Shown: positions 1-20,000 of the stretch, in pieces | How the letters are laid out: every line of letters starts with the position of its first letter | Position numbering within the stretch: the stretch's first letter is position 1 | Assembly: GCA_008632985.1 (NCBI GenBank) | Contig: QPGO01000258.1 | Span: forward strand, 66,083-86,082 | Direction: 5' to 3' | DNA from: Psammoneis japonica | Lineage: Eukaryota | DNA length: 20,000 nucleotides | Program-made: the position numbers and the translations under genes | The notes under the pieces: generated by a model | Seen by the model: only the letters and a program-made list of their open reading frames with translations | Told to the model about the DNA's origin: nothing | Database searches by the model: none

Positions 1-570
1 TGGTGGCAGTTGGAGCCTTCACATGGCTTTTTGCAGAGCCGGTGGTGTGTGGAGCCTTTGTGCTGCCAGCGCTGGTGGCGGCCGGTTTGAGCCTCTGCAG
101 CACTGCTGGACATGGAGCTGGCAGCCTTTGCACACCACTGAGCATGGAGCTGGTGGCAGTTGGAGCCTTTTGCTGTGGAGCTGGTGGTGTGCAGGGCCTT
201 TTTGCTGGCACTTGTGGTGGTTTTAGCCTTCACACTGCTGGGCACAGAGCTGGTGGCTTTGGAGCCTTTGCACCACTGGGCATGGAGCACAGAGTTGGCG
301 CTGTGGCAGTTGGAGCCTTGTTTGTGCCATTGGGAGCAGAGCTGGTGGCAGCTGGAGCCTTTTCACTGCTGGCGCTGGCAGTGGTTGGATTTTTTGCACT
401 GATGCTGATGCTGGCAGTGGCTGCAGCCTCTGGATTGCTGGCACTTGCTGTGTGGCTGGTTGAGGCCTTTGTGTGCTGCTGACACTGGCGGTGGTTGGAG
501 CCTTTGTGCTGCTGCTGGATGCAGAGCTGGTGGTGGTTGGAGCCTTTCTGTTGCTGGGTGGAGCTTTTGA
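1..570 (-). repeat. Degenerate 33-42 bp coding-type tandem repeat (KAPT / Thr-Pro-rich mucin-like), decayed; continues off the left edge
   Basis: Recurring GGTGGCAGTTGGAGCCTT-like units at about 12, 51, 122, 162, 261, 313, 354, 497 and 539. The minus strand reads KAPTAT/KAPTT in shifting frames (ORFs 223..702 and 230..814). Confidence 0.7.
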
Positions 571-2508
571 GCAGCAATTTGGCTGCAAATTGCAGGTTGC
601 TGTCATGCACACATTTCCCTTCTGCAGACATTCTGATGGCAAACACGTGCTCACAGGACATTGTTCTTGCACCTGCTGGAAATGATGCTGCAGTGAACAC
701 AAAACAGGAAAGCAGCTGCAAACTGTTGTGCAATTGTCCCATTTTGTGTTTCTTCATGCTGGGACAATGGATCTTCCCAACCTCCCAAAATTTGCACTTG
801 TGCCCAAAATGCAACTCTCTCCAACATCTGGACCCTCAACCCACAGTGCTCACCTGTCCCTGCACCTGCTTGCCAGCACTGCTGATTGCACTTAGAAGGT
901 TCATCATGCCAGTGCCAGCTCTGACAACATTTTTGAAATTTCCACACCATCCAGCCTCCCACTGTGACCAACACCCTGATGAAACCTGGCAGGCATGCAC
1001 CCCAAGTCATGGAAGGCTAAAAAAAGATTTTTTTGCAGACTTTGCATGTTTCAGGTGCAGCTGCAATCCAATGCTGAACTCAGCTTGGCTCTCAATTTGG
1101 CCACAATTCTGTCAATTGACCAGAAGCAATGTCAAAATGAAGTGCAAGGAGGGGTGTTGCTTGTGTTGTTTCTTCTTTTTGCCTTGGTGGTGCTTGCTTC
1201 CACATGATGTGTGTCATGGAACAATGAAGTTAAAAAAACTCATGGGAAAGTCAATGCAGAGCAAGTGTGTTCTTCAAGTGGCTGTGCACTGTGCCACTTC
1301 CATGCTCTTGCCATCTTGCACACATGCAAATGGACAGAGTCATTGTGTTTGGTGTGATCTGGGATCTTCAAGATGAAAAAATGTGCTGACTGTGGTTCGT
1401 GATTGGAGCAACAAAGGAGGACACATGGAAAAGCCGAGAGAGCAGAAGTGACAACATGGCAAATCCTGGTCAAAAAGAGGCCACAATGCAGCAAAACTTG
1501 GTGTGTCTCTGTCAAATGTGGGCCTTGGCAAAGCAGGCTTCCCTTGCAGCTAGAAACTCTGGGGCAACATGCACAAACTGTCTGATGTCAATGGCCGGCT
1601 TGCTTCAGCCAACTGGGCAGGATTCCGTGTGAGATGCTGGTGAGCGCAGCATGGAGTTCTGCATGTGAGCACATCCTTGAGAGCACAGAGTTGGGAAATT
1701 CAGCTGCTGCTTGGCAAAACAAATCTCTTGCCACCTTGCCAGCACAACACTTTCTTGTTGACATGTTGGCTCTTGGAAATGGCTGAACTCTGTTGTGCAC
1801 AGGGAAGATGTGGTGACAACAGCACAGTGTGGAGGTGACAAAGGTGGGGTGCTGGATGACTTCTTGAACTTTGCCAATCTCCTGAATGAAGTCACCACCA
1901 AGCCACAAGCTTGGTGTCACATTGAGGTTAACAGCCTCTCTGGGGATCTTTTGCAAAAGCTCGGTTTCCAATCAGGAGAGCTTGGGTGCCCAAGAAAAGA
2001 ATGTCCCTGCATTGTTTGTTGAAGCGACATGGCCAATTCAACCAAATCCTTCCAATTGCACCCGCCCCAACTTCGAGTGTCTGATCAGCTTTTTTTTCTT
2101 TTTTTTTTTCATTCAGAGGAGAAGCAGCCACGCTCAGTCTCACAAACAAATTGTCTTGCGACCATGCCATGAGAGAAACACTCAAATGGTGGATGCTTTT
2201 CAGAAGCATTCTTGACAAAAGAGAAGCTGCAATGGCAAGTCCAGTGCCTCTTGCTTGTTGAGGCCCAGCAACAACAACTGGCAGGGACGACATCACGTGA
2301 AACGATCAACTCCCGAATGAAATGCATGCACGTCAGATCTCACAATGATGATGATTGTTCATGATGGCCTCACTTCAGTCTTCGCATGAGCTCACTCTCT
2401 GCTCTGCTCTTGGCAGCTGCTCTCCAGCTCAGTCTGCCAGGTGCACTGTGCCGCATCTCTCCATCTCCAATTCGCGTGTCTCGCTTGATCCTCTCTGCTG
2501 TCTGTGTG

Positions 2509-2781
2509 ATGATTCGCTCTTTGCTCATGTCAGTCACTGTTGCCCTTTTTGGCTTGGCCCATGCTGGGACGAATCCTGAGGGACTGAAGTTTCCAGCCGC
2601 CAAGACACAGGAGGACGGGGTTGTGGAGTTTCCGTCAGGCCTTCTCTGCAAGGAACTTCGTGCTGGAACCGGTCCGTCGCCGAAGATTGACACGCCGTGC
2701 TTTTGCCACTGTGCAGGAACTTTGATCAATGGCACTGAATTTGACAGCTCTTACAAACGCGGGGAGCCGCTCACTTTTGCT
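2509..2781 (+). pseudogene. 5' fragment of a secreted FKBP-type peptidyl-prolyl isomerase (FkpA/Mip-like)
   Basis: Signal-like MIRSLLMSVTVALFGLAHAG, then GVVEFPSGLLCKELRAGTGPSP..CHCAGTLINGTEFDSSYKRGEPLTFA. Similarity stops before the VIxGW half. Conserved Tyr positions read Cys at 2647-2649 (TGC) and 2710-2712 (TGT). Confidence 0.88.
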
Positions 2782-3268
2782 CTGGAAAATGGGAGCTTTG
2801 CATCCCTTCTGAGTCAGGTTGCGGCGACCGTGGCGCTGGGGGGCAGATCCCAGGTGGTGCTGTTCTCGTCTTCACCTTAGAGCTTCTCAAAGTGACGCAA
2901 GACGGACAAGCGGAGTTCTAGAATGCCTCTTGCACCTGCGCGGCCCGCTCAAAACTTGGGTTTGCAGACCACTGCCGGCAGCGCTGTGCTCTAGAGAGAG
3001 GAAGGTCCTGCAGGGCTGTTTCGTCATTTGCACTGTCAGATTCATCAGCCATCAATTTTCGTCTTGTCCAATTGCAAGTCAACATTGCCGCTCTTCCATT
3101 GCGAAACTCATGTCTGCCACATTTCGCCCACCCGCATGTGCTTGTCTGCCAAGTGCCTCCAGGTGGTCATTTCCTGGTGCGTCAGCAACAATGCCCTGAG
3201 GGAAGCTGCCATCTCCAAAGCCATGTTGATGTCCAACCTGACAAAATTGCACATGTTGTCACACTCAC

Positions 3269-4860
3269 CCAATCATTCCATCACTTGTGCATTGAAACAT
3301 TCGACTGACAATCAGAGCGCCAACGCTGCCCAACCCTTTGTGCAAATGCTCTCAAGCAATGAATTCTTGTGGCCACATGGTGCAAAGTGCCACCTTTGCC
3401 AAAGGCCCCCGAGCCATTTGAAGCTGCTCAATTTCAACATCGGAGACTGAAATAGAAAACAAGTTGAGGATGCACAAAACAACACGTGAAAGCTCGGACA
3501 CATTGTCTCCACACTCGAAACAACAACACACCTCCCCCAACTGCTCGAAAAGGCCGAGCGGCAAAGTCCGCACCCGTGCTGTGCGTGTGCAACCAAACAG
3601 ATGCCGCAAGACCACCAGGCTGCGGTGAGTCGATTCCCACCCACCACAAATGTCGGCGTCGCAATCGTCAGGACAAACATGAGGCCACGGCGTGCCTGGT
3701 TCAAACTTGGACAGTGGGCTTTCTGCTTGTTCCAAATCATTTCGAAGGGTTGACAAGGCAACAGCAGAGAGCAACAATGTCAAATGAGCTGCTTCTTGGA
3801 GCAACAAGGAAGGGTCGAATTGCTCCATTGAAGCCATGCTCCGGACAACTGATCTGCCTTTGGAAAGTTGCAAAGCCGTTGTGCGACTCGCGTTGTTGTT
3901 AAGATTTTGGATTCGTCGCCTGCTGCAATGTGCTGCAGCAGTCTTCGAATGGGATCACCGACGGTCCTTTGCGGTTTCCACATTGGCGCATTGACACTCT
4001 GCGCTGGTCTCTGCATTGGAGCATTTGTGCTCTTTTTGGGCCCTTGCATTGACGGGGACTCGAGAGATTCGTTTCGGTCAGATGATTTTGCAACGATGAC
4101 TTGTGGAGGTCTCTGTTGTTGTGGCTGTCTTCACCGTGACGACAATCGCACTCCTCAAAAAGATTTCTTTGCACGATGCCACAGCGACAATTGAACATCA
4201 TGTCCCTGTGCACTTTCAATTTCGTCAAGGTGGTCTTCTAAATCTTGTCGTGTCATTTCATTCAATTGTTCCCGCTCCCGTTTGACAGAGGTTGCCTGTG
4301 GAAATTGCCCAAAGGATGGAGGCTGCGTGCATCTGTCTGACTGCAAATGAAATGCTGCAAGTTCCATGCCAACATCCAACCATTTGGAGTGCATTTGATG
4401 AACGACAGTCACTGCAGCAGACAAAGTGCTGTGAGCGATTGTGCCATGGGTTTTCCAATTGACGACCTCATGCTTGCCTGCTTCCCAATGCTGCAGCAAT
4501 GATGCACCCGACATCAGAGACACCAGACATCAGAGATGTCAAGAAGAGCGGCAAGATGAAAATGAATGTAAGTGCCTTCAACTTTCAATGCATTCCGAGT
4601 TCATTCTCAAGTCTGCACAACAAAAGCGCTGATGCCCAACACCTGCTCACGCGGCAATGAGAAAAGGAAGTTTTGAATGTCAGCAGAAAGGTGAAGGAGG
4701 CAATCAGTGCTCCCATTGGACAGGGGTGATCAAACACTCCATTCCCGCCGTCATGCAGGTCGAAGAAATGGAAAAAGACCGCTGCAGCCTTGAACAGTGC
4801 TGACCCATGCAGTCTCAACAGAGCTTGAAAGCCAAACACACCGCCTTGATGCTTTGTCAT
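3269..4860 (-). pseudogene. 3'-truncated bestrophin-like (UPF0187/RFP-TM type) gene with retained introns
   Basis: ATG at 4860. Motifs LRLHGSALFKA, DHP(C)PMGALIASFTFLLTFKTSFS, (H)WEA|VTVVHQMHSKW, PSLLLQEAAHL..LSAVALSTLRND, AARPFRAVGG|VSDVEI..ARGPLAKVALCTMW.QEFI, SDGMIG. In-frame introns inferred at 4491-4650, 4412-4477 and 3447-3531, with a further donor at 3268. Contains frameshifts and stops. Family call is from memory of diatom homologues. Confidence 0.72.
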
Positions 4861-4959
4861 TGTTGCTGTGGAGTGGGCTTGCACTCTAGAACGATTGTGC
4901 AAATGTGCAAAATGCAGAGGAGAAAGCGCTGTCATTTGCCATTTTCATCATTCCTGCTG

Positions 4960-7086
4960 CGGCTTCTGCGGCAGAGTGTTGGCTTCTAATCCGTCCAAGA
5001 GCTGCGCAGCACCTCGTTTCATTGCAATGCTGCAATCACCGTCGCGGACAACAGTGTCGCATTTGATCAAGAGCGGCTCCAACTCCACCAGTGCCTCAGC
5101 CGCAGCTGCAACCATTGCAGAGGCGGTTGCTTCAAAATTGTCAAGCTCGACGGGCGGCAACTCACTGGTTTCCGCTGTGGCATCAACCGAAACTTCGGGA
5201 AGCTCCGTCAAGGATGGATGAGCGCCATTTTTGTTCCATGCATCACACGGCGACCACAACAAAGCTGTGGTGTTGGCATTGAGCAGCTCCATGACGTTTG
5301 ATGAGGACAGATTCAAGATTGTGACGGACACACCATGCACATCAAATGAAGTCATGCAGCTGCCCACAAAAATGCAAGTCACTGTGCAGCCATGCTGCAT
5401 TTCCAGACAGCCCAAAATGGAGTTGGTCAAGATTGACATTTCAAAGTTAGATGTCCCACCCAAATTGTTGACAAGGACACAGAGATCGTCTCCTTTTTCG
5501 AACATGGGAACGACTGCTTCCAATTCATCGACACACCCACACTTGTGAATCGCACCAACCATCTCCTTTGCAAGTTCCTTGCTTGTCAAAAGCGCGGACT
5601 GCTTCACCCCAGCTTCGCCATGAATTCCGAGGCCAACTTCAATCATGTCATCATCGTCCAGATGATCTTTGACTGCCACTGCACCAGGCACCGTGACTGC
5701 ATCAAGCGCCGCACCCAACGTTCCCATGTGTTTTGCAGTCAGTGCAGCCAGGTTTGCCGCGCCCTGCAAAGATTTCCCTTCGGCAGCAGCTGCTCCTGCA
5801 ATCTTGTGAACAAGAATGGCTCTGGAAATGCCTTGAGCTCCAGGGATGCCCTTGGTTCTCTCCAAGGCCGCATCGTCGGCTGCGACCGCCACTTGGCAGG
5901 AAAGACGGGTTCCAGCCCCAGGTGGGACTTTTTGTGACATTTGCCCCGCAGAATTCCACGTGCGAGCTCTGCAGTTTGTGCTCTGGTTGATGGACATGTT
6001 CACTTTCGACATGAAATGAACAGTCAATTTTGCAGCACATGCACCTCTGTTCGCACTCGAAGTTTTAGATGACACGCCTGCCCTGCGCCATTCTCAAGAC
6101 ACTCGAGAATGGCGCAGAAGAAAAAAATGTCAAAAGTTGTTGAGTGGATCACCCGACAATTGCACTGTAAAATGATGCAAAATTTCGCCAAAATCACGCA
6201 GAAATGTGCATGCGCGACATGCGACGCGCATTCAAAAAACTGTCGATGTCACAGTTCAGCAGGGCGAGGTCCCACCCAGACCTGGAGCGCGTCTGGCTCG
6301 ACCACATGCCGCTCCAAAGTTCAAACGGTCACCAGCGCAGTTCTTCACCACTGGCAGAATGGGGCTTGTTTTCCCACATGAAGCGGCGCGAATTGCAGCC
6401 AAGGCAGCGGCGACAGAGGGAGACGCAAAGATTCCTCCTGGAGTGGCTCCGCTGAGCATGCCGTCGCCTGTCCATCCTGCATGACTCGGCTCATGTCCGC
6501 CGCCGCCACTGAGAATCTGAGCACCCGTTCCAGCCTTCAAGTTGCTCTTGAGCACAACATGATGATTTTTCAATTTCGCGAGGCGAGCGAGTCAGATGTT
6601 GCAATGGCAGGCCAGCAACAAATTCGTCGACAGTGTCGGCTGGATCGCTGGTGATCTTTTTCGGCTTGGGCGATGCGACGCTTTTCTGCTGTGCGAGTTG
6701 AGCCAAACAACACCTGGTCATTTTGCGTGAGGGTCAATCACTGCTGGGAAGACTCACGCGGATGTTCTCAGCAAGAAGCTCCTTTGCACAAGGGCCGTCG
6801 CTCAAGAGCATGGGACAAAAGCTGCGGCCCAACCAACCCGCTGCACGACCTGTCTTGCAAGTCGCAGCCGAGACGGCAAGTTCTTTGAGAATTGCACTCG
6901 CATTGCCCCGCTTGTCAACGACCATGGTGTCGTTGCACACTTTGTTGGAGCTCTTGAAGATGTGCGCTCGAGTGCGGAACAGGAGCCCGCTTGTTGGCGG
7001 GTCATCGCCGAGTGCATTTTGCTCTTGTCGGAACGGCCGGTCAGATGCAAGAATCAGCTCAATGGGAATCAGTTCAACAGAATTCG
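4960..7086 (-). pseudogene. Dihydroxyacetone kinase / triokinase (DAK1 + start of DAK2 domain), frameshifted, interrupted and 3'-truncated, with an upstream non-DAK exon
   Basis: KKITSDPADTVDEFVAGL; SGGGGHEPSHAG..GML..IFASPS; VKN(C)AGDRLNFG; ADD..LVHKIAGAAA; GLGIHGEAG; LVNNLGGTS; DGDC. Frameshift near 6575 and an insertion at 5911-6286. The DAK2 SMGGTSG motif is absent. Intron 6689-6757 joins an upstream exon in frame. Confidence 0.9.
5911..6286. mobile_element. Candidate MITE-like insertion in the DAK pseudogene
   Basis: 376-bp non-DAK block splitting the DAK1 domain. Ends are imperfect 18-bp inverted repeats (TCCAGCCCCAGGTGGGAC vs revcomp TCCAGGTCTGGGTGGGAC, 14/18). A central 13-bp stem hairpin lies at 6083-6117. 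No clear TSD. Confidence 0.55.
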
Positions 7087-7165
7087 CTGGCGATTAGAGT
7101 GCACACAATGTGATAGAAAGACCCGCCATTTTGACAAGCAGAAAGCATTCATTGGCTTCCACAGT

Positions 7166-8197
7166 CAGAAAACGCATCTGCGGCATGGCAAGTGCGGCAA
7201 CAACGGCGGCATGGAAATCTGATTGGACAAACGACGTCAGCTAGCTATGAACTTTGTTCTTCACAACAAGTGATGTTGACATCATTATTGCCCCCCCAGC
7301 ACCTGCCAGCATCGCGCAGGCAGACCCCATGCTGTACAAGTATGGTAGTACGAGTGGTAGCACTCACTCTACACTGGATGAGACGCATCACGTCAAGTAC
7401 TGAAGCCGCACGTAGAATTGTACGTGGAATGAGATGTGGTTTTTTGTGCAAGTCGCCATGGCGGTGTGTGGTTGTTTTGGACAACTTCTATCGACTTTGT
7501 GACTATAGAAGTAGGATCAATCGATAATATGAAGTAGTTATGATATGTGTAGAGAAGGAAATGGTAACGCTTCGCGTACTTCTTTCCAAAATGGACCTGT
7601 TGTATTGCAAGAATTTTCAGGTCTTTTCATGCATCGCAGAAAGCCATGCATAAGGTCCCTAAACTAGATCTCTATGACACAGAAACTACCGTACAGAGTA
7701 ATTTAGATATGGCGGATTGAACGGTGTTATTTGTAAGTTAAATGGTTTTAGAGTAGGTAGACTAAATGGCCCGAGAAGGACGGTGCAAAAATTTCTACTT
7801 GAAAGTTGCTGAAATTGTCCCATAAGAGGGTCGCACATGCATTGAACAAAAAGAGAAACAACACACACATACTAACAAAAATGCTGCGGTTCTAATGGTG
7901 TTATTTTTATGCTCACCAGTCCGAAAGTTGCCGCTGTCATGGGCGGTTCGTGCTGTTTGTGTATCATGATGTTGTGTTGTCTTGCTGAGTCTCCAAGGAC
8001 TCTTGTGAATGTTTCTGTTGAAGTGGAGCGCGAATCGCCACGGCCGGGCGGCGGGGCGGATGGTGGGCGGGGTAAGGATGATGTCATCATTACTTATTGT
8101 GAACAACAAGGTTCTTAGCTGACGTCGTTTATCCAATCAGATTTCCATACCGCCGTTATGACCGCACTTACCATACCGCGGATCGATACGTTTTCTG
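7166..8197. mobile_element. Non-autonomous TIR DNA transposon, Mutator (MULE)-like, 1032 bp
   Basis: TIRs at 7166-7243 and 8116-8197, starting CAGAAAACG. Perfect 9-bp target-site duplication TTCCACAGT at 7157-7165 and 8198-8206. No transposase ORF. A 9-bp TSD with long TIRs is typical of the Mutator superfamily. Confidence 0.88.
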
Positions 8198-8224
8198 TTC
8201 CACAGTTTGCCTGCCGTACACCGC

Positions 8225-8403
8225 GAGGAATTTTGTGTCTCGGAGGAATTTTGTATCTCGGAGGAATTTTGTGTCTCGGAGGAATTTTGTATCTCGGAGG
8301 AATTTTGTATCTCGGAGGAATTTTGGGTCTCCGAGACACAAAATTCCTCCGAGACACAAAATTCCTCCGAGATACAAAATTCCTCCGAGACACAAAATTC
8401 CTC
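8225..8403. repeat. Palindromic array of 18-bp repeats: 6 forward + 4 inverted copies
   Basis: GAGGAATTTTGTRTCTCG at 8225, 8243, 8261, 8279, 8297 and 8315 (last copy variant). CGAGAYACAAAATTCCTC at 8332, 8350, 8368 and 8386. Symmetry centre about 8332. Confidence 0.97.
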
Positions 8404-8424
8404 CGTCCTCCGTGAACCGATACC

Positions 8425-9118
8425 GAGATGACGCAGCGGCGACCCATGCTCGGCGTTGTTTGAGCTATTCTTCGTCGTTTTCGTTCATTAAAGACACGGA
8501 TATTACTTTTAGGAGGTCGACTTATTAGATGAGGTCCTTGGTTTGGCGAGAAACGGTGTTGTGGTTGTGTAGAAATCAAAAGATGGGTCTTTTTGCTTTT
8601 GTCAGCCATTTCTGAGCGGCAAAACCCATGCTCGGATGTTTAATCGCTCATTTCACTTCATCTGATGACTATCTTTGCTGGTATCGACTGACCATAGTCA
8701 CGAAAAGTTTTCCATGTCTTGGGTATGCTGTGAGTGGGGGCTGTGTCGAGAAACATCGTTCTCTCGTATCGACAAGAAACACCAAAAAGCATGGAATTGA
8801 CACGATCCATACTTTGATGGTTATTCGTTCAATACACCTTTTCTGTTGTGTACCTTTGCCTGGATCTCTTTGTTATAGATACGAAAATCATCTCCTGTCT
8901 TGTGTATGTTGTCTGTTTGATTTGTGGAGAGAAATGTCGGTCACACTCGTGTGGTCTCATGTCGGCATTTTGTGATTATCGCTGACCCATGCTTTGATGT
9001 TTATCCGTTCATTTCGTCTCTTTACTCACACTTCTTAGATTAAATCATTACTTTATAGCTACAAAAAGATTAGTCTGTCTTGGACATGCCTTCGGTGTGG
9101 TCTGTAAAGCGCAAGTGT
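8425..9118. repeat. Left arm of a long inverted repeat, composed of diverged ~180-bp units
   Basis: Reverse complement of 9720-10410 over about 690 bp, with scattered substitutions and long identical tracts (e.g. about 8652-8785). Motif (G/A)AYCCATRCT at 8441, 8623, 8804 and 8984. Confidence 0.95.
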
Positions 9119-9719
9119 CATTCACAACACAACTGCGACATGCACCGACGCCTCTCCTCGCTTTCCGACAATACATTTTCCCGTTTGTCTAATCTATTTG
9201 GACACTAATTGAGTCATATAATAGAATGATAATAGAATGGTAATACCAAGCATGTTCTTCTTTTATCTGAAGCTATTGTTTCCTTGTTCTCCATGGTAGC
9301 ATCATTCTGGATTCTCCTCGGCTGGTCGTGCATCCGTGAGTCGAATGAAGTCCGTAATCCTCATTTTGTTCAACATCAGCTCGTTCACTAGAAGAATCAT
9401 GAGCAGAGCCGGAGGAGTCGCTTGATGGGCTGCAAGTGCTTTTGATTTTGATATTGACAAAAGGACCCCGATTCTCCTCGTCAGCACTAGCAGAACTCGC
9501 AGGAACGGTGTCGGTGCTTTCCTCGGCGGACGTGTCCGCAACAGCCTTTGCTTGGCATTTCTTGGTGGATCTATTGTGCTTCCTTGTATTTTGGTTGAAC
9601 TCTTCCTCTTCTTTTCATGATTCCTCTGCTTCTCGTTGCTTTGGGACAGCATGCGCTTGCGGGGAGCTTTATGACTGAAGCTTGCGCATCGCTTGTGTTG
9701 ATGTTGGACGGTGTGCTCC

Positions 9720-10410
9720 ACATTGCTCTTCACAGACCCCACCAAAGGCAAATACAAGACAGTATAATCTTTTCGTAGCTAAAAAGAAGAGATTCGATTA
9801 AAGAAGTGTGAGTAAAGAGACGAAATGAATGAATAAGCATCAAAGTATGGGTCGGTGTCAGTAAAAAAAAAGACACGGGACCACACGAGTGTGACCGACA
9901 TTTCTCTCCACAAAACAAACAGACAACATACACAAGACAGGAGATGATTTTAATATCTATAATAAAGAGATAACAGCAATGGTACACAACAGAGGAGGTG
10001 TATTGAACGAATAACCATCCAAGTATGGATCGTGTCAATTCCATGTGTTTTGGTGTTTCTTGTCGATACGAGAGAACGATGTTTCTCGACACAGCCCCCA
10101 CTCACAGCATACCCAAGACATGGAAAACTTTTCGTGACTATGGTCAGTCGATACCAGCAAAGATAGTCATCAGATGAAGTGAAAGGAACGAATAAAGATC
10201 AAAGTATGGGTTTTGCCGCTCAGAAATGGCTGACAAAAGCAAAAAGACCCATCTTTCGATTTCTACACAACCACAACACCGTTTCTCGCCAAACCAAGGA
10301 CCTCATCTAACAAGTCGACCTCCTAAAAGTAATATCCGTGTCTTCAATGAATGAAAACGATTAAGAATAGCTCAAACAAGGCCGAGTATGGGTCGGCGCA
10401 GCGTCATCTC
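9720..10410. repeat. Right arm of the long inverted repeat, directly upstream of the kinase gene
   Basis: Mirrors 8425-9118. Motif AGTATGG(G/A)T ends near 9853, 10031, 10212 and 10394. The arm ends about 165 bp before the kinase ATG. Confidence 0.95.
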
Positions 10411-10573
10411 CAAAAACACAACTTGAAACTTCACGTTCCCAACAAAAAGTCTCTCCGCGCTAAAAAAATAAATCCCACGGATCGCGCGAAAAGCAATAAC
10501 ACGGGTTGCGATTGGCGCCGCTGCTGCACCTACCTGCCGAAGGGAAAAGGGAACAAAGCCAACAGCCAAGACG

Positions 10574-13500
10574 ATGGCACCAGCCACACGCAACACTACA
10601 AAGACTCCAAGGAAGAGCAACGCTCGCAGTCGTTCTCATCATGCCCCAGCGACGACTCTCCGGGCAGTGACAGCGCAAGACTTTGTCAGCAGTCCAAATG
10701 ATGCAGAGCTGGCGCTGCTTCCCGCTGCGGTTGCTCGTGCCTTGACCGACCTTGCTTTCGACGCAGCTTCTACGGCGACACCGCGCAGGAAACGACGCAG
10801 CACTGGTGCTGCTGGTACGTCCAAGACCATCGCCTTGAATGGTTTGACTGAACAAAAGCTCCGAGCCTTCATCAACAGTGCGTCCAAGCTTGATGGTCCT
10901 TTGGTTGCAGCATTGGAGCGTCTAGCGGAAGAGGAAGGTATCCATGGGATGCTCGAAGATTGCGATGTCAAGAAGACGGCGGTCTTTCGTGACTGGCACA
11001 CTGCCTACGTGACAGACCCGGAAAGCGAACAGGCGGAACAATACCGTCGTTTTGAGCTGATGCAGTTTGCAACCAAGAACATGAAACGCGTCAAAGGACG
11101 CGTAGCCAATACTTTTGCGCCTATCGGAAGCAGGGAATGCACCACGCAAGAACTTTCCCGTTATGCCACATCCCTTGTGATGCTCCTACGCGACGCTGCC
11201 TTACTCCCTCGCGAAAATGTCGACTCGGACACCGATGGTTCGTGCGACGGCAGTTGCCGTGAAGAACTCTTGTGCCGAGTGGCTCGCTTCATTATGTTTA
11301 ATGGCATCTTGATCAGCGACTTCGAGAACTTTGACACTCACCACGGTCGACGCCGGCCTAGTCTGTACACACAAGTCTTCATCCAAAGTGGGCTAGCCTT
11401 GCCGGAAGGCCTGGATTACTCAGAAATTGACGACAAGGATGACCAGTGCGATCCGTTTGACCTGGACTTCAAGCAAAAGTGCATCAGTCAGCTCTTGATG
11501 GTTCTCTTTGGTGGCAATGACTGTGCCACGCCTTTTGTCAAGCGCGTGTATTCCTATTTCAAAAAGGTCTGGGAGCTGCAGCACTCTAGCAAGCTTAGCT
11601 CACGCATGGCAGGAGCAACTCTTTTCGAACAGCGCAGCATGTTTATACATCAATTTCTCCTCTGGGGTAGCGAGGAGGAGGACGATACCTTGGGGAATAC
11701 ATCTTCAGCAAATGTGCCCTCGATCGATGAGTCGATTGCGTCGTTGGTTGCTTCGTCGCTGTCGTTTGATACCGATGACCATCCATCGGCGAATGCGTCG
11801 ATTGGTGGGGTTACGGCGGTGTCGTTAAGCCCAGCCTCGACACGCAGTATTGTGCACAGTAGCAGTGGTACTAGCGATGGTTGCAAGACCCCTGGAAGTT
11901 CCAACGGCAATAGAACTCCTCTTGCCATGCTCAAGGGCGCCATTGAAGAGCTTGTTGCGGATCCGTTCAACAAGAAAAAGTATTCTGAGGTCGCCGTGTG
12001 TGCTTCCAAATGCTATCCCCAGCGCAGCTTGCTCGTGGGATACGAGTTTCCGGACCCCGCCAGTCCAGCCGCCAAAGAAACTAGCAAGTTGCTTCGAGCA
12101 GCATGTCCGGCGACAAAGGTGGAGGAGCCGGTCCGTTTGAGCAAGGCCGAGAGCACGTTTGTGGATCAACTGCACAATCTCAAAAAGACGGACAAGAACC
12201 TTCCTGATATTCAGTTCATTCGCACCCTATTTCCACTCATTCAGAGTGCTGACCAGTTCTACAACACTGGGGGCATTCTCGAAAAACGGCTTGTCCAGTC
12301 CCACATCAAGGCGCTTCCAGTGGATTCCAGTATCAGTAATTTTGCTGATACTTTTGCTCCGTCCGCCGCGCAGGCCGCATCAGGAGGGGACGAGAATGAA
12401 TATGATGCTGTGGAAAACACCGACGAATTAAGCGACGACGACGATATCGAAACAGCGAATGCCTTACCAGTCGCTCCAACGCACACCCCTGCTGGTGTGC
12501 TAGGCAATCTGGAAGTTTTCAACTTCATTAAATCCTGCAAGGAGGACCGTCGCGAGGAAGTAAAGGATGGCAAAGTGGTTTACGAAAACGTCTTTTCCCC
12601 GGAAGTCCAGGCATTGTTGGGAAAAAGCTATCAAAAACCGGGGAAGAGCGAGGAGGAGCAGGCGTGCGCTGGATATCGCATGAACCAGGATGACCTAAAG
12701 CTTGTCCGCTTCGTCGATCACGGAGCCATGGGTTTTGTCTTTATGGCCAAGCACCAGTCTGGCAAGCTGGTGGTGGTCAAGTATGAGTGGTTTCATCCGT
12801 GGGATGTTGGCGACTATCTCATTCGAGTTCTCGTAAACCATTCCCTGGTCAACTACAGCCCTCACGTCATGACTCTTTCTGACTGGTTTGTTGTTATGTG
12901 CGATGGCACAGCGTTGAAGCAGAAGATTAGGGGTGGAGATAGACTCGAACGCAAGTGTATGATGATTGCTCTTGTCGCTGAGTGGTGCCCCGGTGGGAGC
13001 TTCAAAGCTGCTGTCAAGAAGCGTATCGAGCTTGGATCCCTCAGCATGGGCTGGGTTCTAGAACACGCAATTCAGCTTACCCAGGCGCTTCGCTGCTTCA
13101 AGCGACACAATATTGTCCACCGTGATCTGAAGCCAGCCAATATTCTGATCGGGTCTGACGGTAACGTGAAGATTGCCGACTTTGGCCTTGTTCGCAAGTC
13201 TACTCGGGGTCAAGAGAGTGGCACCCGTGGAGCTGGAACTCCTGGATTCCGCAACCATGCTGGGGTAGTGTATGGCAAGTACGACTCTAACACGGATGTT
13301 ACTGCCCTTGGTTACACCCTCCGCGAACTGTTTTTACAAGGAGACGAAGAGGGCTCAACCAAGGAAATGACGGCTGACGAGGTGGCTGGCGCAGAGGCTG
13401 CAAAGCAAGAGGCATTCACACCGCAGCAAATGGAAGAGGTCATCTCGAATAGTGAAAGCAACAAGGAAGCCCTGAAAGCGTTCCATGAGCTCATTCAAAG

Positions 13501-13597
13501 CATAATCGTCGAAAGTGATGCAACCCGCATCTCAGTGGAGGAGCTTGAGCGCGCACTCGAAAAAATTCGTGAGACGGTGTTGGAGAGCGCTGAATAG
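10574..13597 (+). CDS. 1007-aa intronless protein with a C-terminal eukaryotic protein kinase domain (about 12690-13570) and an unassigned ~700-aa N-terminal region
   Basis: Uninterrupted ATG..TAG ORF with normal TA/CG content and Tyr codons. Kinase motifs: DHGAMGFVF (G-loop), VVVK, HRDLKPANIL (13118), KIADFG (13178), GTPGF, DVTALG. Confidence 0.93.
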   Translation: MAPATRNTTKTPRKSNARSRSHHAPATTLRAVTAQDFVSSPNDAELALLPAAVARALTDLAFDAASTATPRRKRRSTGAAGTSKTIALNGLTEQKLRAFINSASKLDGPLVAALERLAEEEGIHGMLEDCDVKKTAVFRDWHTAYVTDPESEQAEQYRRFELMQFATKNMKRVKGRVANTFAPIGSRECTTQELSRYATSLVMLLRDAALLPRENVDSDTDGSCDGSCREELLCRVARFIMFNGILISDFENFDTHHGRRRPSLYTQVFIQSGLALPEGLDYSEIDDKDDQCDPFDLDFKQKCISQLLMVLFGGNDCATPFVKRVYSYFKKVWELQHSSKLSSRMAGATLFEQRSMFIHQFLLWGSEEEDDTLGNTSSANVPSIDESIASLVASSLSFDTDDHPSANASIGGVTAVSLSPASTRSIVHSSSGTSDGCKTPGSSNGNRTPLAMLKGAIEELVADPFNKKKYSEVAVCASKCYPQRSLLVGYEFPDPASPAAKETSKLLRAACPATKVEEPVRLSKAESTFVDQLHNLKKTDKNLPDIQFIRTLFPLIQSADQFYNTGGILEKRLVQSHIKALPVDSSISNFADTFAPSAAQAASGGDENEYDAVENTDELSDDDDIETANALPVAPTHTPAGVLGNLEVFNFIKSCKEDRREEVKDGKVVYENVFSPEVQALLGKSYQKPGKSEEEQACAGYRMNQDDLKLVRFVDHGAMGFVFMAKHQSGKLVVVKYEWFHPWDVGDYLIRVLVNHSLVNYSPHVMTLSDWFVVMCDGTALKQKIRGGDRLERKCMMIALVAEWCPGGSFKAAVKKRIELGSLSMGWVLEHAIQLTQALRCFKRHNIVHRDLKPANILIGSDGNVKIADFGLVRKSTRGQESGTRGAGTPGFRNHAGVVYGKYDSNTDVTALGYTLRELFLQGDEEGSTKEMTADEVAGAEAAKQEAFTPQQMEEVISNSESNKEALKAFHELIQSIIVESDATRISVEELERALEKIRETVLESAE

Positions 13598-14934
13598 TCG
13601 GGTTGGTCTCGGTTGTTTGGTCTTTCTTGTTTTGATGAATAGTGAGGAAGGAGTCGGACTCGACGCCATCGCATTCGTAAATCGGTGTTGATCCTCCTGG
13701 CTATCAGTCGTTCCTTTTCCGTCATCTGTGGGACTTGGAGGACGACAACTAGACGGGATTTCTTAGAACAAATACACAAATACAGAGTAGAAAAAGGGTT
13801 CTTCTCATCATGTTACATTCTTTAGGCTCTTGTTGACCATCGTTAGTAGGAGAGTGCGTGTGCGTAACTCTGTTGCAGACGATCGACACCTTGGCAAGGT
13901 TGGGCTAAGGCATGCTCTCAAGAATCTACTCTCAGACGACAACAGAGGATCGTCTTCAGTCTCTAGCTAGAGTGTCCAACGAAAGTAGAGGCAGCACCAA
14001 ATTCAATGTGGGCCAGCAGCGCGTCAGACTTTGAGAACTCAAATTCTAGGTGGCAAACGACGGCAGGAGCACACCCTGCTTGGCAACGCACAGCAGGCGC
14101 TCAGCAATGCAACGAGTCCATCAACAAGAAGTCTCCTCAGAGGATGGTTCAAGTGGCACACTCTCTTGTGGCAACAAGATCTCATCATTGTGTTGCTGAT
14201 CTTTTGTTTCTGGGTTGGACGACTGAAGTGCTCATTGCTGGAACTGATTGTGCAACAAGCACGTGACAGAACTCTGGCAACTCAGGCATTTTTGACACAC
14301 TCAGTTGTTCCACAGGGCATTGAAGCACAGTGTGGCACTTTGGTCAGTGCTTTCCTGATGCAGGTTCAACTCCTGTGCATGTCACACTGCTGGACACGCA
14401 GGATCTCTGTCAGTGCAATGCTGAGTCACAGAGCACAGTGGGCTGTTCTTTCAGAGCCACTGTGGATTGCTTCTGACAACTGCTGAAGTCAAAGACAGCT
14501 GGCAATGACTGTGGAAGGTGCTGTTTGTGCAACACAGTCCTTTGCAGCACTTGGGCTTTGCGGGCAGGTGGGAAAGAAGAAAACAGTGCGGTGCTTCTTC
14601 TTGACATTTCAACAACAACAAACTCTCTTGAAGCTGTCTCAAGAAGGAGCAGGTCTGAAAGCAGTTTTAATCACAGACACCGTCTCTTTGACACGTGCAT
14701 TGTCAAATCCATGAACTGCCATTGATGTGAAGTGAGGAAAGAAAGGATGGAGCCGACCCTCACAGAAGATTCTTTGCCGAAATGGAAAACAAACAACAAG
14801 ATGATGAGATCAATCCTGGGGGCAGTGACAACATTGACATTGAGGTTGGCATTGACAAATTGGGAAGAACACCGCAGCTCACATGGTTGCGGGATCCATT
14901 CGAAGCAGCAGTGGTTGCGACATGGACTTTTCAA

Positions 14935-14994
14935 TTGTTGACTCCATGCTGAATTCAGCCAAGTTTGTTGACTCCACACTGAGTTCAGCTGAGT
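14935..14994. repeat. Two tandem 30-bp copies
   Basis: TTGTTGACTCCATGCTGAATTCAGCCAAGT / TTGTTGACTCCACACTGAGTTCAGCTGAGT. Confidence 0.8.
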
Positions 14995-17900
14995 CAGAGT
15001 CTGAAGACTTGGTCAAGACCCAGATGATCAAGATGAATCTGCACAGTCACCAACACCTAAGACGTTGCCCAACCACACCAAATCTTGACCCATCCCTGAG
15101 TCCCACACAGCATCCACAGGCTTCTTTGCTCCCACTGCAACCAATGCAAACAGCTGTTGCCAGTTCCCAGAAAGTTTGGGCTCTGCCTTTTTGAGAAGTG
15201 TTCTCAATCCCACAGTGAGCGCATTCAACAACACACACCTGCCACACACACCTCCGGCCACAGAAACTTCACATGAAACATCTCATTTTGGCAAATGCAC
15301 TTGATCGAAGAGTGCCTTGGGGCATCTTCATTCTGCTTTGGAGCATCTTGAAGAATGAGATTTGTTGGATCAACAAACCAAGGGTGTTGTCAGAGATTTG
15401 GTTGATGTTGGAGATGAAGAGCTTGGAATTGATGTGATGTGAACAAATGCTGCACTCTTGTTCTTGTCCTCCCTTGATGGGACAGGCAATCTCATTGTCA
15501 CTGCTGTCATCATTGGATGATGCAGAAGCAGTGGCAGTCCTTCTGGTCCATCAGGAAATTCCCTTCCACCAAATGAAAATCCAATGTTGCAGCCATCGTT
15601 GCTTTGCTCCACACAAGTGCCACTGTTTTGCTTCTCCTGTTGTTGCTCTTTGGGTTGCTTGTCCTCTGTGGCTGTTCTTGCTGCGTTCTCTTTCTTGGAA
15701 TGGCATTCAAACTTGTTGTGGGCTTCAACAATGTTGATCACATGGTCACAGGTTTTTGTGGCTTTTTTTTTTTGCAGTGCCGGCACAGAAGTCATCATTG
15801 GAGCTGGAATCGCCTGCACCTTTTGAGCTGAATCCTCCCCAACTCCCATCACACTGACACCCAGTTGACACACATGCACAAAAGACAATGACACTTGAGC
15901 AATGCCAGTTGGAGGCAACACAGAGGGAATGAGTCATCTTGCTGGAGATTTGATGCTGAAAGGTTGCTTTGCATTCTTTGGTGTTGGTGTGGATCAAAAG
16001 AACAGACTGGAGCAAGGCACAGTGAATCACAGCTTGTCTTGAAACAGCTGCTGGCGTGGGCATTGTGACAATTGCATCCAAACCTGGCAGGTGCAACACA
16101 CCAGCACATTTGTCTTGAATGGCATGTCCATGTGCATGTTTTGAAATGCACTTGGAACACACAGCAACCAGAGCTGAACAAAAGTTGGGGAAAGGAGCAA
16201 ACTGGCCAAAAATTGACTGTGTTCAGTGTGCAAACATGGGGTCAGAGATTCATTGGCTTCTTCTTTGTCATCTGGGGTGGTTGCTGCAGACACATCAGTG
16301 CACATTGCAGCTGCAGGGTGACCATGTGACACAGAGTGGTGTGTGCTGCCAAGCTGAGCACCCCAGACTGGCTTTGAGCCAAGCCCAGGGCACCAGCTGC
16401 CAGCTCCCTCTGCCCCACCCCCCCAGCAGGTGCTCTCCTCTTGCAATGTGGTTTGGCTGCTCAAGCTGCACCACACACTGACTCAAAGGCTGCACTTGGG
16501 AATGGCTGGGGAGAACAAAAACTTGCAAGCTTGGCTGCTTGCTTCAGACCTTTTGCTGGCAAGCAAAAGCTTGTGAGAAAAGACCAGCGGGTGCTGCAGC
16601 ACCATGAGCAGAGGAGAGTTGTCACCACTGGTGCATTTCAGGTCAAGTGCTTGGCATGCTCAATGACTCCTGGACCCAACCTTGCCAAGATCTTCTTCAC
16701 TTTGAACCACACAAGCAGGGGCAGAGGTTTGTTGGCTCTTTGTCATCCAGGGTGGCTGTGCCTCCAAGATGCTGCTCTGCTCTCTTTGCTGAGGGAGGCT
16801 CCCAGCTGCTCATGGGTCATGTGCACTTTGGGGGCATGTCGCTTGATTTGCAAATTGTGTCATGCTCCTTGCCCACAACTGTGTGGTGTGCCCAATGTGC
16901 CAGTGCATTGGCTGGGCACGTGACAAACTTTCATGCTTGTCTGTGGCTGGCAAAATGCCATTGAGCTTCCCACTTGCTTTTTTGAATGCTGCTGTCAACA
17001 TGTCACAAGTCAAGCCCAGCTCACTGTGAGAAGCACTTCCAGTGGGCTGTTGCTTGGGAGCATTTGTGGTTGTCTCACATTGTGTGTTGGCCAGCAAAAA
17101 TGGGTGCTCTCCTGTTTGCAGCAACAAGCAAGGTTGTGTGTCAATGATGAGGGGGAAAGCCTCTCTTGCTGTCACCACCACACAACAAAACAATTTCTCT
17201 GGTTGCATCTCCATCAAGGGGTTGACAGAGCCAAATTGGCTCTGTTGCTTTTCACAGGTGTGCTGCCAAGGCAAACTGAGGGCAGGCAACTCATGCATTT
17301 GCACATTGAACAGGCAGAGGCAATTTTGGACATGAGAGAAATGGCATGTTCGAAAGCATTTTCTGCTTGTCATTCAAACCATTTTGCAACTGCCACAGCA
17401 TGGGGCACCAACAGGAGCTCCTGTCATCTCTGGCTTTGGCCAGGGATCTTTGCAGTTGTGCTGACCCTCAAGCCAGCACTCTTGTCTGAGAGGGGCAGTG
17501 GTGTGTGGGGTTGGGCAGTCCAGCCAGCTTGCTTGTGCTCTCTTGATGGCACAAAGTGCTCTCATGGCAGCAAGGTGGGAGCAACTTTTGTGAGTTGTGA
17601 GCTGGGCTGGTGCTCTGGAGGTCTAAGTGCACCACTGGGAAGCTGTGCAGGAAGAGCTCAGTGCTGCCACCATGGTCAGAATCATGGGCCTGTTGCCCCA
17701 TGTCTTGTGATTCTGGGAGTGCTCACAACTCCCAGGTTTGATGTGTCAACTGGCAGCTTGGAAAACAGCTTGAATTGCAACACCTGACATTTGGGTGGTG
17801 CTGTTGTTCCCAAGAGCTGGGGGGAGGGAACAGGCAGAGAAAGGTTTTGCAGGTGCTGCTTTGTCAATGGTTGGGGACACAGCTTGGACTCTGGACTTTC

Positions 17901-19337
17901 TCAGGATGGAAGCAGCAGGTGCAGCAACAGAAGATGCCTTTGTGACAGAGGAGTGGCTGATGGACAAAGCCTGAGCACAGAGAACTGTCCACTCCAGCTC
18001 AAGCAAGCAACACGCTCCAAAGGCGATGCTGCATGTGTGTTCATGCACCAACATGCTTCAAGCTGAAAGTCATGAAAAATGCCATCAGCCTCTCAAACAG
18101 CTGCAGTGTGGGGGTCAAACCACAAATGTGCCATTTGAGAGTCCAAGGCTCAAAACAAGAGTGGCACATCAACTCTCTTCTCATTTTGTGCATTCAAGAA
18201 CCCCTTGTTCTTCACAAGTCTTTTGCACATGCTTGCTTCTGTTGATTCAAGGGCAAAGAGAGGAGTCACTTCTTGTTTCTTTCTTCCAGTTTTGGTTGTC
18301 GGGCAGTGTTGCAATCTTCATTTTCACAATTTGGAAATTGGCAAAATCAATCACTGCTTGTTTGTCTGTTTGCCATTTTGTGTCTCTGCAGCAAAAAGCA
18401 CTGCAAGACCACAGTCCTTAAAAAATTGTTTTGCCACAAGCTCCAAATTGTTTCACCAATTTTGGTGCTTTGAAACATGTTGAGCATTCACTCAACTCAG
18501 CTGAGTCCCAGTTTTTGGTAGATGCAAAATCACGAATGTCAAACAAATGGCTGATTTCAACATGAAGCTCCCCAAGTTTAACCCCCTTGTGAACATGCAC
18601 TTCAGAGCTTGTGGCCATGATGCACAAAAGCATGCTTTTGTTGTTGTCATGTGTCAAGAAAAGCTGACACATCAAAGTTCAGCACAAGGGTGGAGTGCAA
18701 ATTAATTTGTGCATTCATTGCCTGGATTGCACCAATGATGTGACAGCAAAAAGTGACAGTGAATCTACACTCACAATCAATTGACTTTTCTGCATTGCTT
18801 AGAATTTGAAATCTGACCACTGAGCATTTGGCTCTCTTTGTGCCAAAGTGGAAATGACACTTGACAATTTGCACTGTTCATTTGGCTCAAAGTCAAATGA
18901 AGCATTTGGGTCATCACAGGCTCATTGTCACATTCAGCCACAATCATGAAGTCTTTGCCAATGCCTGCTTTGCAACTTTGAGCAATCCCTCTGTCACAAA
19001 TTCAAAAATGTGTTTTGTCAAAGTGAAGATCAACAAAATCACATTGTTGCCCTGATGAATGAATGCAAGTTGGGGTCAAGAAATCCAGGCGTCAAGAAAT
19101 CCATGACAGCTGGCTGAGAGATGGATCATTCTTCAAAAGGGAGAGATCAGGAGTGTTTCATTTCTCTTCTTGTTGTGCCACTCAGAGCCTGCTGTCTGCT
19201 GCACAGGTTGGTGCCCCAAAAGGATGAAACAATGATGTCAACAAGAAGACAAGCAGTCATGCATGAAGAAAGATGAGTGCAGCCAGAGAAGTTGTTTCTT
19301 GCCATGTGTGTGAGCACAGCAAATGTGAGCACGAGCC

Positions 19338-19884
19338 CAAAACAAAACCCAAAATCTGTGTTTAAGGTGCTGCTGCACTTCTGCCCTGCAACTCCAGCAT
19401 CAAGCTGGCCCACACCCCCAGCGCACAATCAGTGTGGCAGGGGCACACAGCAACTGGCTAACAACATCAACACTGCTGCCAGGTGAAGCAATTGGCAACA
19501 GTGCACATGCCTCTTGCAGCAAGACATTTGGCTTCTCAAATGCTGGACTTGAACATGGGGCAAACCATGGTCAACTAATTTTGCAGTCTGTGTGTTGAGT
19601 GAGTCGAGTCAAAACAAAACCCAACATCCATTTTTAAGGTGCTGTTGCACTTCCGCCCAGCAACTCTGGCAACAAGCTGGCCCACACCCCCAGCACACAT
19701 GTGTGCGACAGGGGCATGCAGCAATCAGCCTAGACCAGCATCACCATCAGGTGATGCCACACCAAAACAACTGGCAATTGCACAAGCGCCCCTTGCTGTC
19801 AGCCTCTTCACTTCCTTCATGCTGGATTTGAACATGGGTCTTGCCATTTCCAACCAATTGTGCAGTCTGTGAGTTGAGTGAGTC
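19338..19884. repeat. Diverged tandem duplication of a ~270-bp unit
   Basis: Copies at 19338-19605 and 19610-19884 share CAAAACAAAACCCAA, TTTAAGGTGCTG, CAAGCTGGCCCACACCCCCAGC, ATGCTGGAYTTGAACATGGG and TGCAGTCTGTG.GTTGAGTGAGTC. Confidence 0.85.
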
Positions 19885-20000
19885 ATGTGTTCATCCATGT
19901 GGGCACCTCAAACTTTGAAGCACGGTGAACTGCAGCCAAGTTGTCAAGGCACAGGTCGCTTCCCAGAGGAAAGCCCGCAAGACAATGTTCCATCACCCAA

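Follow-up and report, generated by a model that had tools for sequence, protein, structure and literature searches.

The bestrophin-like gene copy and its surroundings

The stretch analyzed here, referred to throughout as the window, comprises 20,000 nt of the Psammoneis japonica genome (GenBank assembly GCA_008632985.1, contig QPGO01000258.1, positions 66,083 to 86,082 of the forward strand). Its minus strand carries, at 4860-3269, a bestrophin-like gene copy that has kept its introns and which, judged from its sequence, is a 5′ gene fragment and a pseudogene. The copy lies inside the first of two blocks of DNA (A and B) that have lost nearly all of their TA dinucleotides and that flank a core with normal TA content (Table 1). 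Two further truncated gene pieces, a dihydroxyacetone-kinase fragment and an FKBP-type fragment, flank the copy.

The identity of the copy was established through its homologues. None of the 13 open reading frame (ORF) fragments of the region matched a Pfam family, even at E <= 10; phmmer with the 70 codons of exon 1 recovered 43 proteins at E <= 0.001 (best 3e-14), and the Bestrophin_2 family (PF25539) was present in 14 of the 15 matches scanned, which bears out the bestrophin-like identity proposed in a preliminary description of this DNA made from the letters alone. With homologue proteins as queries, tblastn reached values of up to 1e-43 over 3813-3268. Bestrophin_2, whose eukaryotic members have a long linker, can be followed along the fragment, both in its N-terminal block (RLHGS...DHPYPMG...FR.NFSY.RYWEA...HSKWLDV) and in its C-terminal block (LFLQEAAHLLSLLSAVA.STLRNDLE...ARGP.AKV), for which the closest protein shows 62% identity at best. 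Unlike the family members, the window copy is broken, Tyr-free and without the last ~125 residues, and its fragments fall below Pfam detection.

The gene model was built from tblastn with seven homologue proteins and from direct translation. The bases quoted in the preliminary description were all found at their places on the minus strand (ATG at 4860, GTGAGCA at 4650, GCAAGCA at 4477 and GTGTGT at 3531). Exon 1 reads MTKH for MIKY, DHPCP for DHPYP and FSHCR for FSYNR, the second of which had been pointed out before, as had the 13-nt micro-exon with HWEA for YWEA; both hold. Spliced to 4411, the micro-exon gives HWEAV, the counterpart of which in homologue P0011 is YWEAV, and homologue P0009 runs straight through intron 1. 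The 3′ border of the micro-exon was placed solely by protein alignment and a contig end. The contig in question is one of those from two runs (X1 and X2), belonging to one sample of one study, that were compared with the window: 2040 nt long (X2 record 9), it aligns over 3532-4415 and ends at both exon 3 borders, with an overhang of 4 bases, GCAG, with which both the intron and the micro-exon end. Alignment limits of this kind would be expected of a spliced paralogue or of one with diverged introns.

Tblastn and spliced alignment to the intact paralogue had been suggested as the check on intron positions and ancestral bases. L002, a metagenomic genomic relative 59% identical to the copy, with its bestrophin-like region at 590-1300, has three introns, all with GTA donors (GTACGT, GTACGTA and GTAAGA), which agrees with the earlier view of GTA as a common donor in this gene lineage. 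One of these introns (donor GTACGTA) shares its codon boundary with intron 1 of the window. After YWEA, L002 has no intron, and it has no micro-exon, its YWEA exon starting TATTGGGAAGC as against CATTGGGAAGC in the window micro-exon. This one relative also supplied the presumed ancestral state of the donors of the window copy.

Table 1. Features of the window, with the outcome at each conserved tyrosine (Tyr) column of the bestrophin-like copy.
Feature	Position	Strand	Description
Exon 1	4860-4651	-	70 codons, ATG at 4860; tblastn, phmmer, translation
Intron 1	4650-4491	-	160 nt, GTGAGCA...CAG
Micro-exon	4490-4478	-	13 nt, CATTGGGAAGCAG (HWEA plus G)
Intron 2	4477-4412	-	66 nt, GCAAGCA...CAG; GC in place of GT
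Exon 3	4411-3532	-	880 nt; homology in frame 2, then 1, then 0
Intron 3	3531-3447	-	85 nt, GTGTGT...CAG
Exon 4	3446-3269	-	VSDVEIE...SDGMI; GTGAGT donor next, at 3268
Tyr column	4851	-	His; homologues Tyr 34/36
Tyr column	4722	-	Cys; homologues Tyr 43/44
Tyr column	4659	-	His; homologues Tyr 37/38
Tyr column	micro-exon	-	His; Tyr in 8/8 homologues reaching it (9 in alignment)
Tyr column	4331	-	Cys; homologues Tyr 12/17
Tyr column	3663	-	Cys; homologues Tyr 10/11
Tyr column	3603	-	His; homologues Tyr 11/11
Tyr column	3348	-	His; homologues Tyr 7/11
Tyr column	3297	-	Phe; homologues Tyr 9/10
Tyr column	3291	-	Cys; homologues Tyr 6/10
TA-depleted block A	1-7094		19 TA in 7094 nt; observed/expected TA ~0.03
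Core, TA normal	7095-14047		262 TA in 6953 nt; observed/expected TA ~0.56
TA-depleted block B	14048-20000		14 TA in 5953 nt; nearly CpG-free
FKBP-type fragment	2365-2877	+	Related same-sample contig keeps TA or CG against CA or TG here
Dihydroxyacetone-kinase fragment	4972-6733	-	Residues 63-525 of a 670-aa homologue; Dak1 domain, E = 3e-47
Kinase ORF	10472-13594	+	Uninterrupted, 1041 codons, C-terminal protein-kinase domain, normal TA; between the blocks

Extent of the TA-depleted blocks

Together, the two blocks hold 33 TA in 13047 nt, with an observed-to-expected ratio (o/e) for TA of 0.03-0.09, and CA and TG are over-represented in them (o/e 1.4-2.1). The GC content is higher, not lower, with TA loss. 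Within the 1600 nt of 3261-4860, which span the gene copy, only 4 TA occur, against 100.7 predicted by base composition and 56.4 predicted at the o/e of the core (Poisson P = 1.4e-19 for the latter). The borders (7094/7095 and 14047/14048) are sharp and resolved to <100 nt: the last TA of block A lies at 6168 and the next ones at 7095 and 7114, and the TA at 14047 is followed by the next at 14668. Directly beside the blocks, over 7095-10470, where the core is non-coding and rich in repeats, the TA o/e is 0.5-0.7. Inspection of the borders by eye revealed neither a target-site duplication nor a terminal repeat, and Rfam gave 0 matches.

The depletion is shared alike by the introns, exons, flanks and spacers of block A. 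The three truncated gene pieces, which are unrelated to one another and lie on both strands, are all TA-free, so that the signature is a property of the region and not of the bestrophin-like gene. The preliminary description had placed the change at the level of DNA and on both strands, and this agrees with the interleaving of T>C and A>G, with introns and flanks as TA-free as the exons, and with the presence of affected genes on opposite strands.

The blocks differ internally in CpG. Between 2000 and 7000, ~97% of TA is lost and CpG is near normal (o/e 0.6-0.95), whereas in 1-2000 and 14500-20000 CpG is almost gone too (o/e 0.02-0.3); this contrast implies two separate decay processes or two ages. 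CpG decay and TpA loss share their products, CA and TG.

Counted on both strands, TAA and TAG together number 34 in block A and 43 in block B, as against 296 and 322 TGA. Long open frames are seen in all six frames, for example at 483-1373 and 16924-17784, and have no family match. Because TGA is the only stop left in TA-free DNA, false gene calls are likely: the long false frames that such DNA holds in six frames can inflate gene counts and lists of 'orphan' genes.

Tyrosine columns and ancestral bases

Columns of the protein alignment were counted as Tyr columns where at least half of at least three aligned homologues have Tyr and the position lies inside a true exon; four rows of intronic read-through (4641, 4433, 4424 and 3507) were left out. 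None of the 10 conserved-Tyr columns is Tyr in the window copy, which has His at five, Cys at four and Phe at one, and nine of the ten codons are CAY or TGY. Changes to His (T>C) and to Cys (A>G) are intermixed along the one coding strand. Codon 2 is ACA, at a position with Ile in 34 of 35 homologues.

Related DNA was found in the same sample. At a likeness of at least 80%, run X1 yielded 2584 contigs (353 at >=99%, 553 at 95-99%, 918 at 90-95% and 760 at <90%), among which each transition type was counted 285-309 times and each transversion type 39-62 times. Several contigs agree with TA-free stretches at 0 differences, and a 5888-nt X1 contig crosses the border at 14047. The X2 contigs cover little or none of much of the TA-free blocks, and no inference was made from cover or from summed depths. 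For the FKBP-type fragment, a same-sample contig supplies a paralogue: among the 20 differences listed between 2526 and 2751, the contig has TA at 9 and CG at 4 where the window has CA or TG.

Sequence context of the target

The 33 surviving TA are distributed very unevenly over their flanking bases, with 27 in YTAR, 4 in RTAR, 2 in YTAY and 0 in RTAY. YTAR thus makes up 27 of the 33 block survivors and 52 of the 262 TA in the core (Fisher P = 2.5e-12). Given that YTAR is the only class without TAY on either strand, the survivors fit the TAY/RTA target put forward in the preliminary description. With core densities taken as the start, survival comes to ~28% for YTAR, ~2.5% for sites with TAY on one strand and 0 for RTAY, from which we infer a roughly five-fold preference for TAY and not an absolute rule. 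Over the core, YTGY and RCAR together are in excess by 28/kb and YCAY and RTGR together by 7/kb; these tetranucleotide excesses favor A>G within TAY as the likely direction of change. A purine precedes the site in four of five His and two of five Cys changes (micro-exon included), numbers too small to decide whether His arises only after a purine.

Along the blocks, CA and TG follow one another at random (runs test, z = 0.35 to 1.2), as would result from numerous single-site events that occurred independently on either strand. A single processive pass along one strand was considered and dropped, the runs test having shown no strand-coordinated tracts of CA versus TG.

Condition of the gene copy

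The preliminary description had the signature killing the gene, a reading that the lesions of the copy do not support. Exons for the last ~125 residues are missing, and in tblastn searches nothing in the window matches beyond residue ~501 of homologue P0016 (627 aa). Exon 1 is short by about 10 codons, in the first membrane segment, and exon 3 has two frameshifts, one of them near 3562/3561 where the Tyr-Asn codons of the homologues are missing. Three TGA codons stand in frame, two in the exon 3 linker and one in exon 4 at 3354-3352. The latter replaces a codon for Arg in 11 of 11 homologues and fits CGA>TGA, a CpG change; the other stops are probably the result of separate CpG>TpG decay as well. 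A change of TA to CA or TG is unable to create an in-frame stop, its sole route to TGA being from TAA. Nowhere does an intact ORF span the whole Bestrophin_2 domain. At the splice sites, three of the four donors still start with GTG and would normally be usable, and only the donor at 4477 (GCAAGCA) is without GT. The copy also lacks the intron loss of a processed pseudogene, with three introns kept and a fourth donor at 3268.

The two truncated gene fragments on either side and the persistence of a related copy in the same sample complete the picture. It is improbable that the signature killed the gene, and the phrase 'gene killing' is overstated: truncation, frameshifts, a deletion and CpG-type TGA codons are found instead, in a copy that was probably already dead. 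The most likely history is that of a duplicated fragment, dead on arrival and then hypermutated. The related proposal that a TAY/RTA target makes an efficient inactivator stands in so far as Tyr codons, splice sites and signals are erased, and falls short in that stops cannot be made and only one of the four donors has lost its GT. The signature is best described as an efficient source of missense change that also erases splice sites and signals, and it acted here on a fragment that was probably non-functional already.

Neighboring features

A single frameshift near 6586 and an intron at 6288-5905 interrupt the dihydroxyacetone-kinase fragment, which is without the 3′ domain (Dak2). It is Tyr-free, Tyr having given way to Cys or His (VKNCAGD for VKNYTGD), and reads SGGG-GHEP, one residue fewer than in its homologues. 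Its 381-codon open frame extends into the intron, 63 codons past the homology, as TGA is the only possible stop. A search among 'longer' proteins only, a class that excludes ordinary kinases of ~590 aa, gave no useful intact paralogue. Over 5337-6670, the summed contig depth is 12,000-34,000, compared to tens to hundreds elsewhere, and the intron (about 5900-6300) seems to contain a short repeat of very high abundance.

The core contains, besides the kinase ORF, two sets of repeats. Among 5.8 billion proteins, none is close to the kinase ORF, the best match being 42% over 9% of the ORF's length, and its Protein Atlas matches are kinase clusters only. At 8207-8418, an 18-nt tandem array reverses into its own complement, and 8425-8963 and 9872-10410 form 539-nt inverted arms that are 94% complementary. 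These repeats, matched by many contigs of the sample, probably belong to a mobile element that escaped or post-dates the hypermutation.

Pfam searches with another 89 ORFs, taken from the blocks and from the core, found no viral or transposon family, the only matches being LED_rpt and SWIM, both below threshold, and the ORFs of block B gave no recognizable protein family. The SWIM zinc-finger match in block B, at 18650-18877 on the minus strand (E = 0.004; 17 bits vs. a cut-off of 19.6), is a weak hint of a decayed Mutator-like element (MULE)-type transposase.

Origin of the signature

Taken together, the multi-kilobase domain probably records regional, near-saturating hypermutation of TpA to CpA or TpG at the level of DNA. 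In this process, one base of the palindromic TA would be converted, on either strand, the likeliest route being deamination of the adenine in 5′-TA-3′ to hypoxanthine, which would be read as G; granted hypermutation, we consider the odds for adenine-deaminase chemistry roughly even. Many independent single-site events would be involved, proceeding about five-fold faster at TAY (equal to RTA on the other strand). The fragment would have been a duplicate without function either beforehand or in the course of the hypermutation, and the damage added would be of a kind that makes no stops, with all Tyr codons gone, Ile ATA turned to Thr and the GT of one donor replaced by GC. Separate CpG>TpG decay would account for the TGA at 3354 and probably for the other stops.

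Several points weigh against this account. The same-sample contigs may be the assembly's own data and so are not independent confirmation, and the polarity of the changes is read from homologues of at most 62% identity, one distant genomic relative and the paralogue of a neighboring fragment. The test of direction at TAY is confounded by CpG decay, which feeds the same tetranucleotide classes, and assumes that the core is a fair proxy of the ancestral composition. Of the four YTAY sites seen in the FKBP paralogue, two became TG and two CA, and one Tyr>His change (4659) is preceded by a pyrimidine. Mispairing of oxidized thymine would give the same pattern as deamination of adenine. Finally, no viral or transposon domain was found in the blocks of the window, whereas viral and transposon targets receive the emphasis in the preprint on a similar process in Bigelowiella natans (Mettrop et al., bioRxiv 10.64898/2026.01.13.699255); the link to that species is drawn by likeness of signature only.

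Among the alternatives, a slow genome-wide context bias fares best, although we consider it improbable. The blocks would then be merely old neutral DNA in which TA decays like vertebrate CpG, and the outer parts of the window would suit such a history: 1-2000 and 14500-20000 are CpG-poor too, as in old methylated DNA, and no protein family can be recognized in them. However, in 2000-7000, where TA is 97% gone, CpG remains near normal, the kinase fragment is still recognizable by Pfam and its 381-codon frame is open, so that TA loss lies far ahead of ordinary decay. A non-coding core that keeps its TA (o/e 0.5-0.7 over 7095-10470) beside the blocks, and the sharpness of their borders, also argue against it.

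A sequencing or assembly artefact, in which a modified base at TA was misread and the true DNA is still TA, is very unlikely. Protists with heavily modified thymine exist, and the only runs bearing the window stem from a single sample in a single study and may be the data from which the assembly was made. Contigs from the same run nevertheless show TA as usual in the core as well as in related copies, others match the TA-free stretches at 0 differences (one across the 14047 border), and the frameshifts, deletions and CpG-type stops are those expected of real decay. In B. natans, moreover, the same changes are heritable in Illumina data, according to the text of the preprint (bioRxiv 10.64898/2026.01.13.699255).

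We give still less credence to fungal-type repeat-induced point mutation (RIP), or a cytosine deaminase, acting on duplicates. Related copies at 80-95% likeness do occur in the same sample, gene fragments are affected in exons and introns alike, and CpG is depleted in part of the window; for that separate CpG loss alone, such a process is possible. What decides is direction: RIP turns CpA into TpA and so enriches TA, but here TA is removed, CA and TG are enriched and the GC content is higher, not lower. RIP also makes stops from CAA, CAG and TGG, which the TA>CA/TG signature cannot do.

The least credible explanation is RNA-level A-to-I hyper-editing of the ADAR type followed by reverse transcription and reinsertion, since, for all that ADAR-type enzymes favor a 5′ U and are thus compatible with a TA target, the three introns kept exclude editing followed by retrocopying (as the preliminary description had argued), T>C and A>G alternate on one strand without strand runs, non-transcribed flanks and opposite-strand genes are equally affected, the block borders follow no transcript, and a TA loss of ~97% is far above the capacity of single-strand editing.

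Regional DNA-level hypermutation may also be put in a wider form, in which a TpA system, without singling out foreign DNA, rewrites any silenced or duplicated segment to saturation and is driven by a natural TAY-specific double-stranded DNA adenine deaminase. We advance this joint reading tentatively and are inclined to doubt it. If it were true, host copies with introns would be among the targets, in a mirror image of fungal RIP, and genes would be disabled not by new stop codons but by the loss of Tyr codons, of TATA-like and AATAAA-like signals and of some GT donors, with long TGA-only open frames, mistaken for genes by gene finders, as a by-product.

Comparison with known systems

TpA-directed DNA hypermutation is a newly reported eukaryotic genome defense, known from one preprint and one species. 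In a literature search on a TpA>CpA/TpG process, the sole match was the 2026 B. natans preprint (bioRxiv 10.64898/2026.01.13.699255); the available text of PMC13746701 deals with AC repeats and not with a TpA signature. As told in the text of the preprint, two integrated viral regions in B. natans mutation-accumulation lines mutate ~1000x as fast as the rest of the genome, and A>G or T>C changes, without exception at TpA, make up 230 of the 231 new mutations in the two regions. The same text reports 124 clusters of TpA-poor, CpA+TpG-rich windows in the genome and 324 predicted coding sequences low in TpA, some of which encode host-type domains. An adenosine deaminase is proposed, with an ADAT2-like candidate, and the Discussion also raises the 5′ U preference of ADAR-type enzymes. 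In the text of the preprint, supplements aside, the words intron, pseudogene, trinucleotide and tyrosine have 0 occurrences each.

Compared with the B. natans type as set out in that text, the window is alike in its TpA target, in the products TpG and CpA, in the involvement of both strands, in the regional clustering and in the enrichment of CpA and TpG, and also in that some of the affected coding sequences are host-type. Both the change of TpA to TpG/CpA and its regional confinement are thus found here. The foreign origin of the B. natans type is not seen in the blocks of the window: in place of an integrated virus or transposon, they contain host-type fragments (bestrophin-like, dihydroxyacetone-kinase and FKBP) with spliceosomal introns. 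The depletion also differs in degree, being near-saturated in the window (o/e 0.03), compared to a Rho of 0.45 reported in that text for the giant-virus insert of B. natans.

The locus adds the points that host-type, intron-bearing fragments can reach near-complete TA loss, that hypermutation runs far ahead of CpG decay, and that inactivation proceeds by missense, splice-site and signal loss and not by nonsense. Its flanking-base preference is a constraint that any candidate enzyme must explain.

RIP of ascomycetes resembles the process in the window in acting at the DNA level, through dinucleotide-specific transitions that affect exons and introns of non-functional or duplicated DNA within sharp limits. 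Its machinery is RID/Dim-2 and its timing premeiotic. It differs in converting CpA to TpA, in lowering the GC content and in creating stops. RIP acts on duplicates; the text of the B. natans preprint has a single-copy region among the targets, and duplication is therefore perhaps not what triggers the process. ADAR hyper-editing and the hypermutation of retroelements by APOBEC3 share with the window deaminase-type transitions and a preference for the 5′ neighbor (U or T before A for ADAR), there directed against selfish nucleic acids; they differ in acting on RNA or on single-stranded reverse transcripts, with strand-coordinated runs and intron-less copies as the outcome. The phenomenon itself is therefore already known, and the locus is a further, saturated instance of it on a host-type target. 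What is new here is an intron-bearing, host-type target, near-saturation, the flanking preference seen in the YTAR survivors, the CpG loss that accompanies TA loss in part of the blocks, and a signature that disables without making stops.

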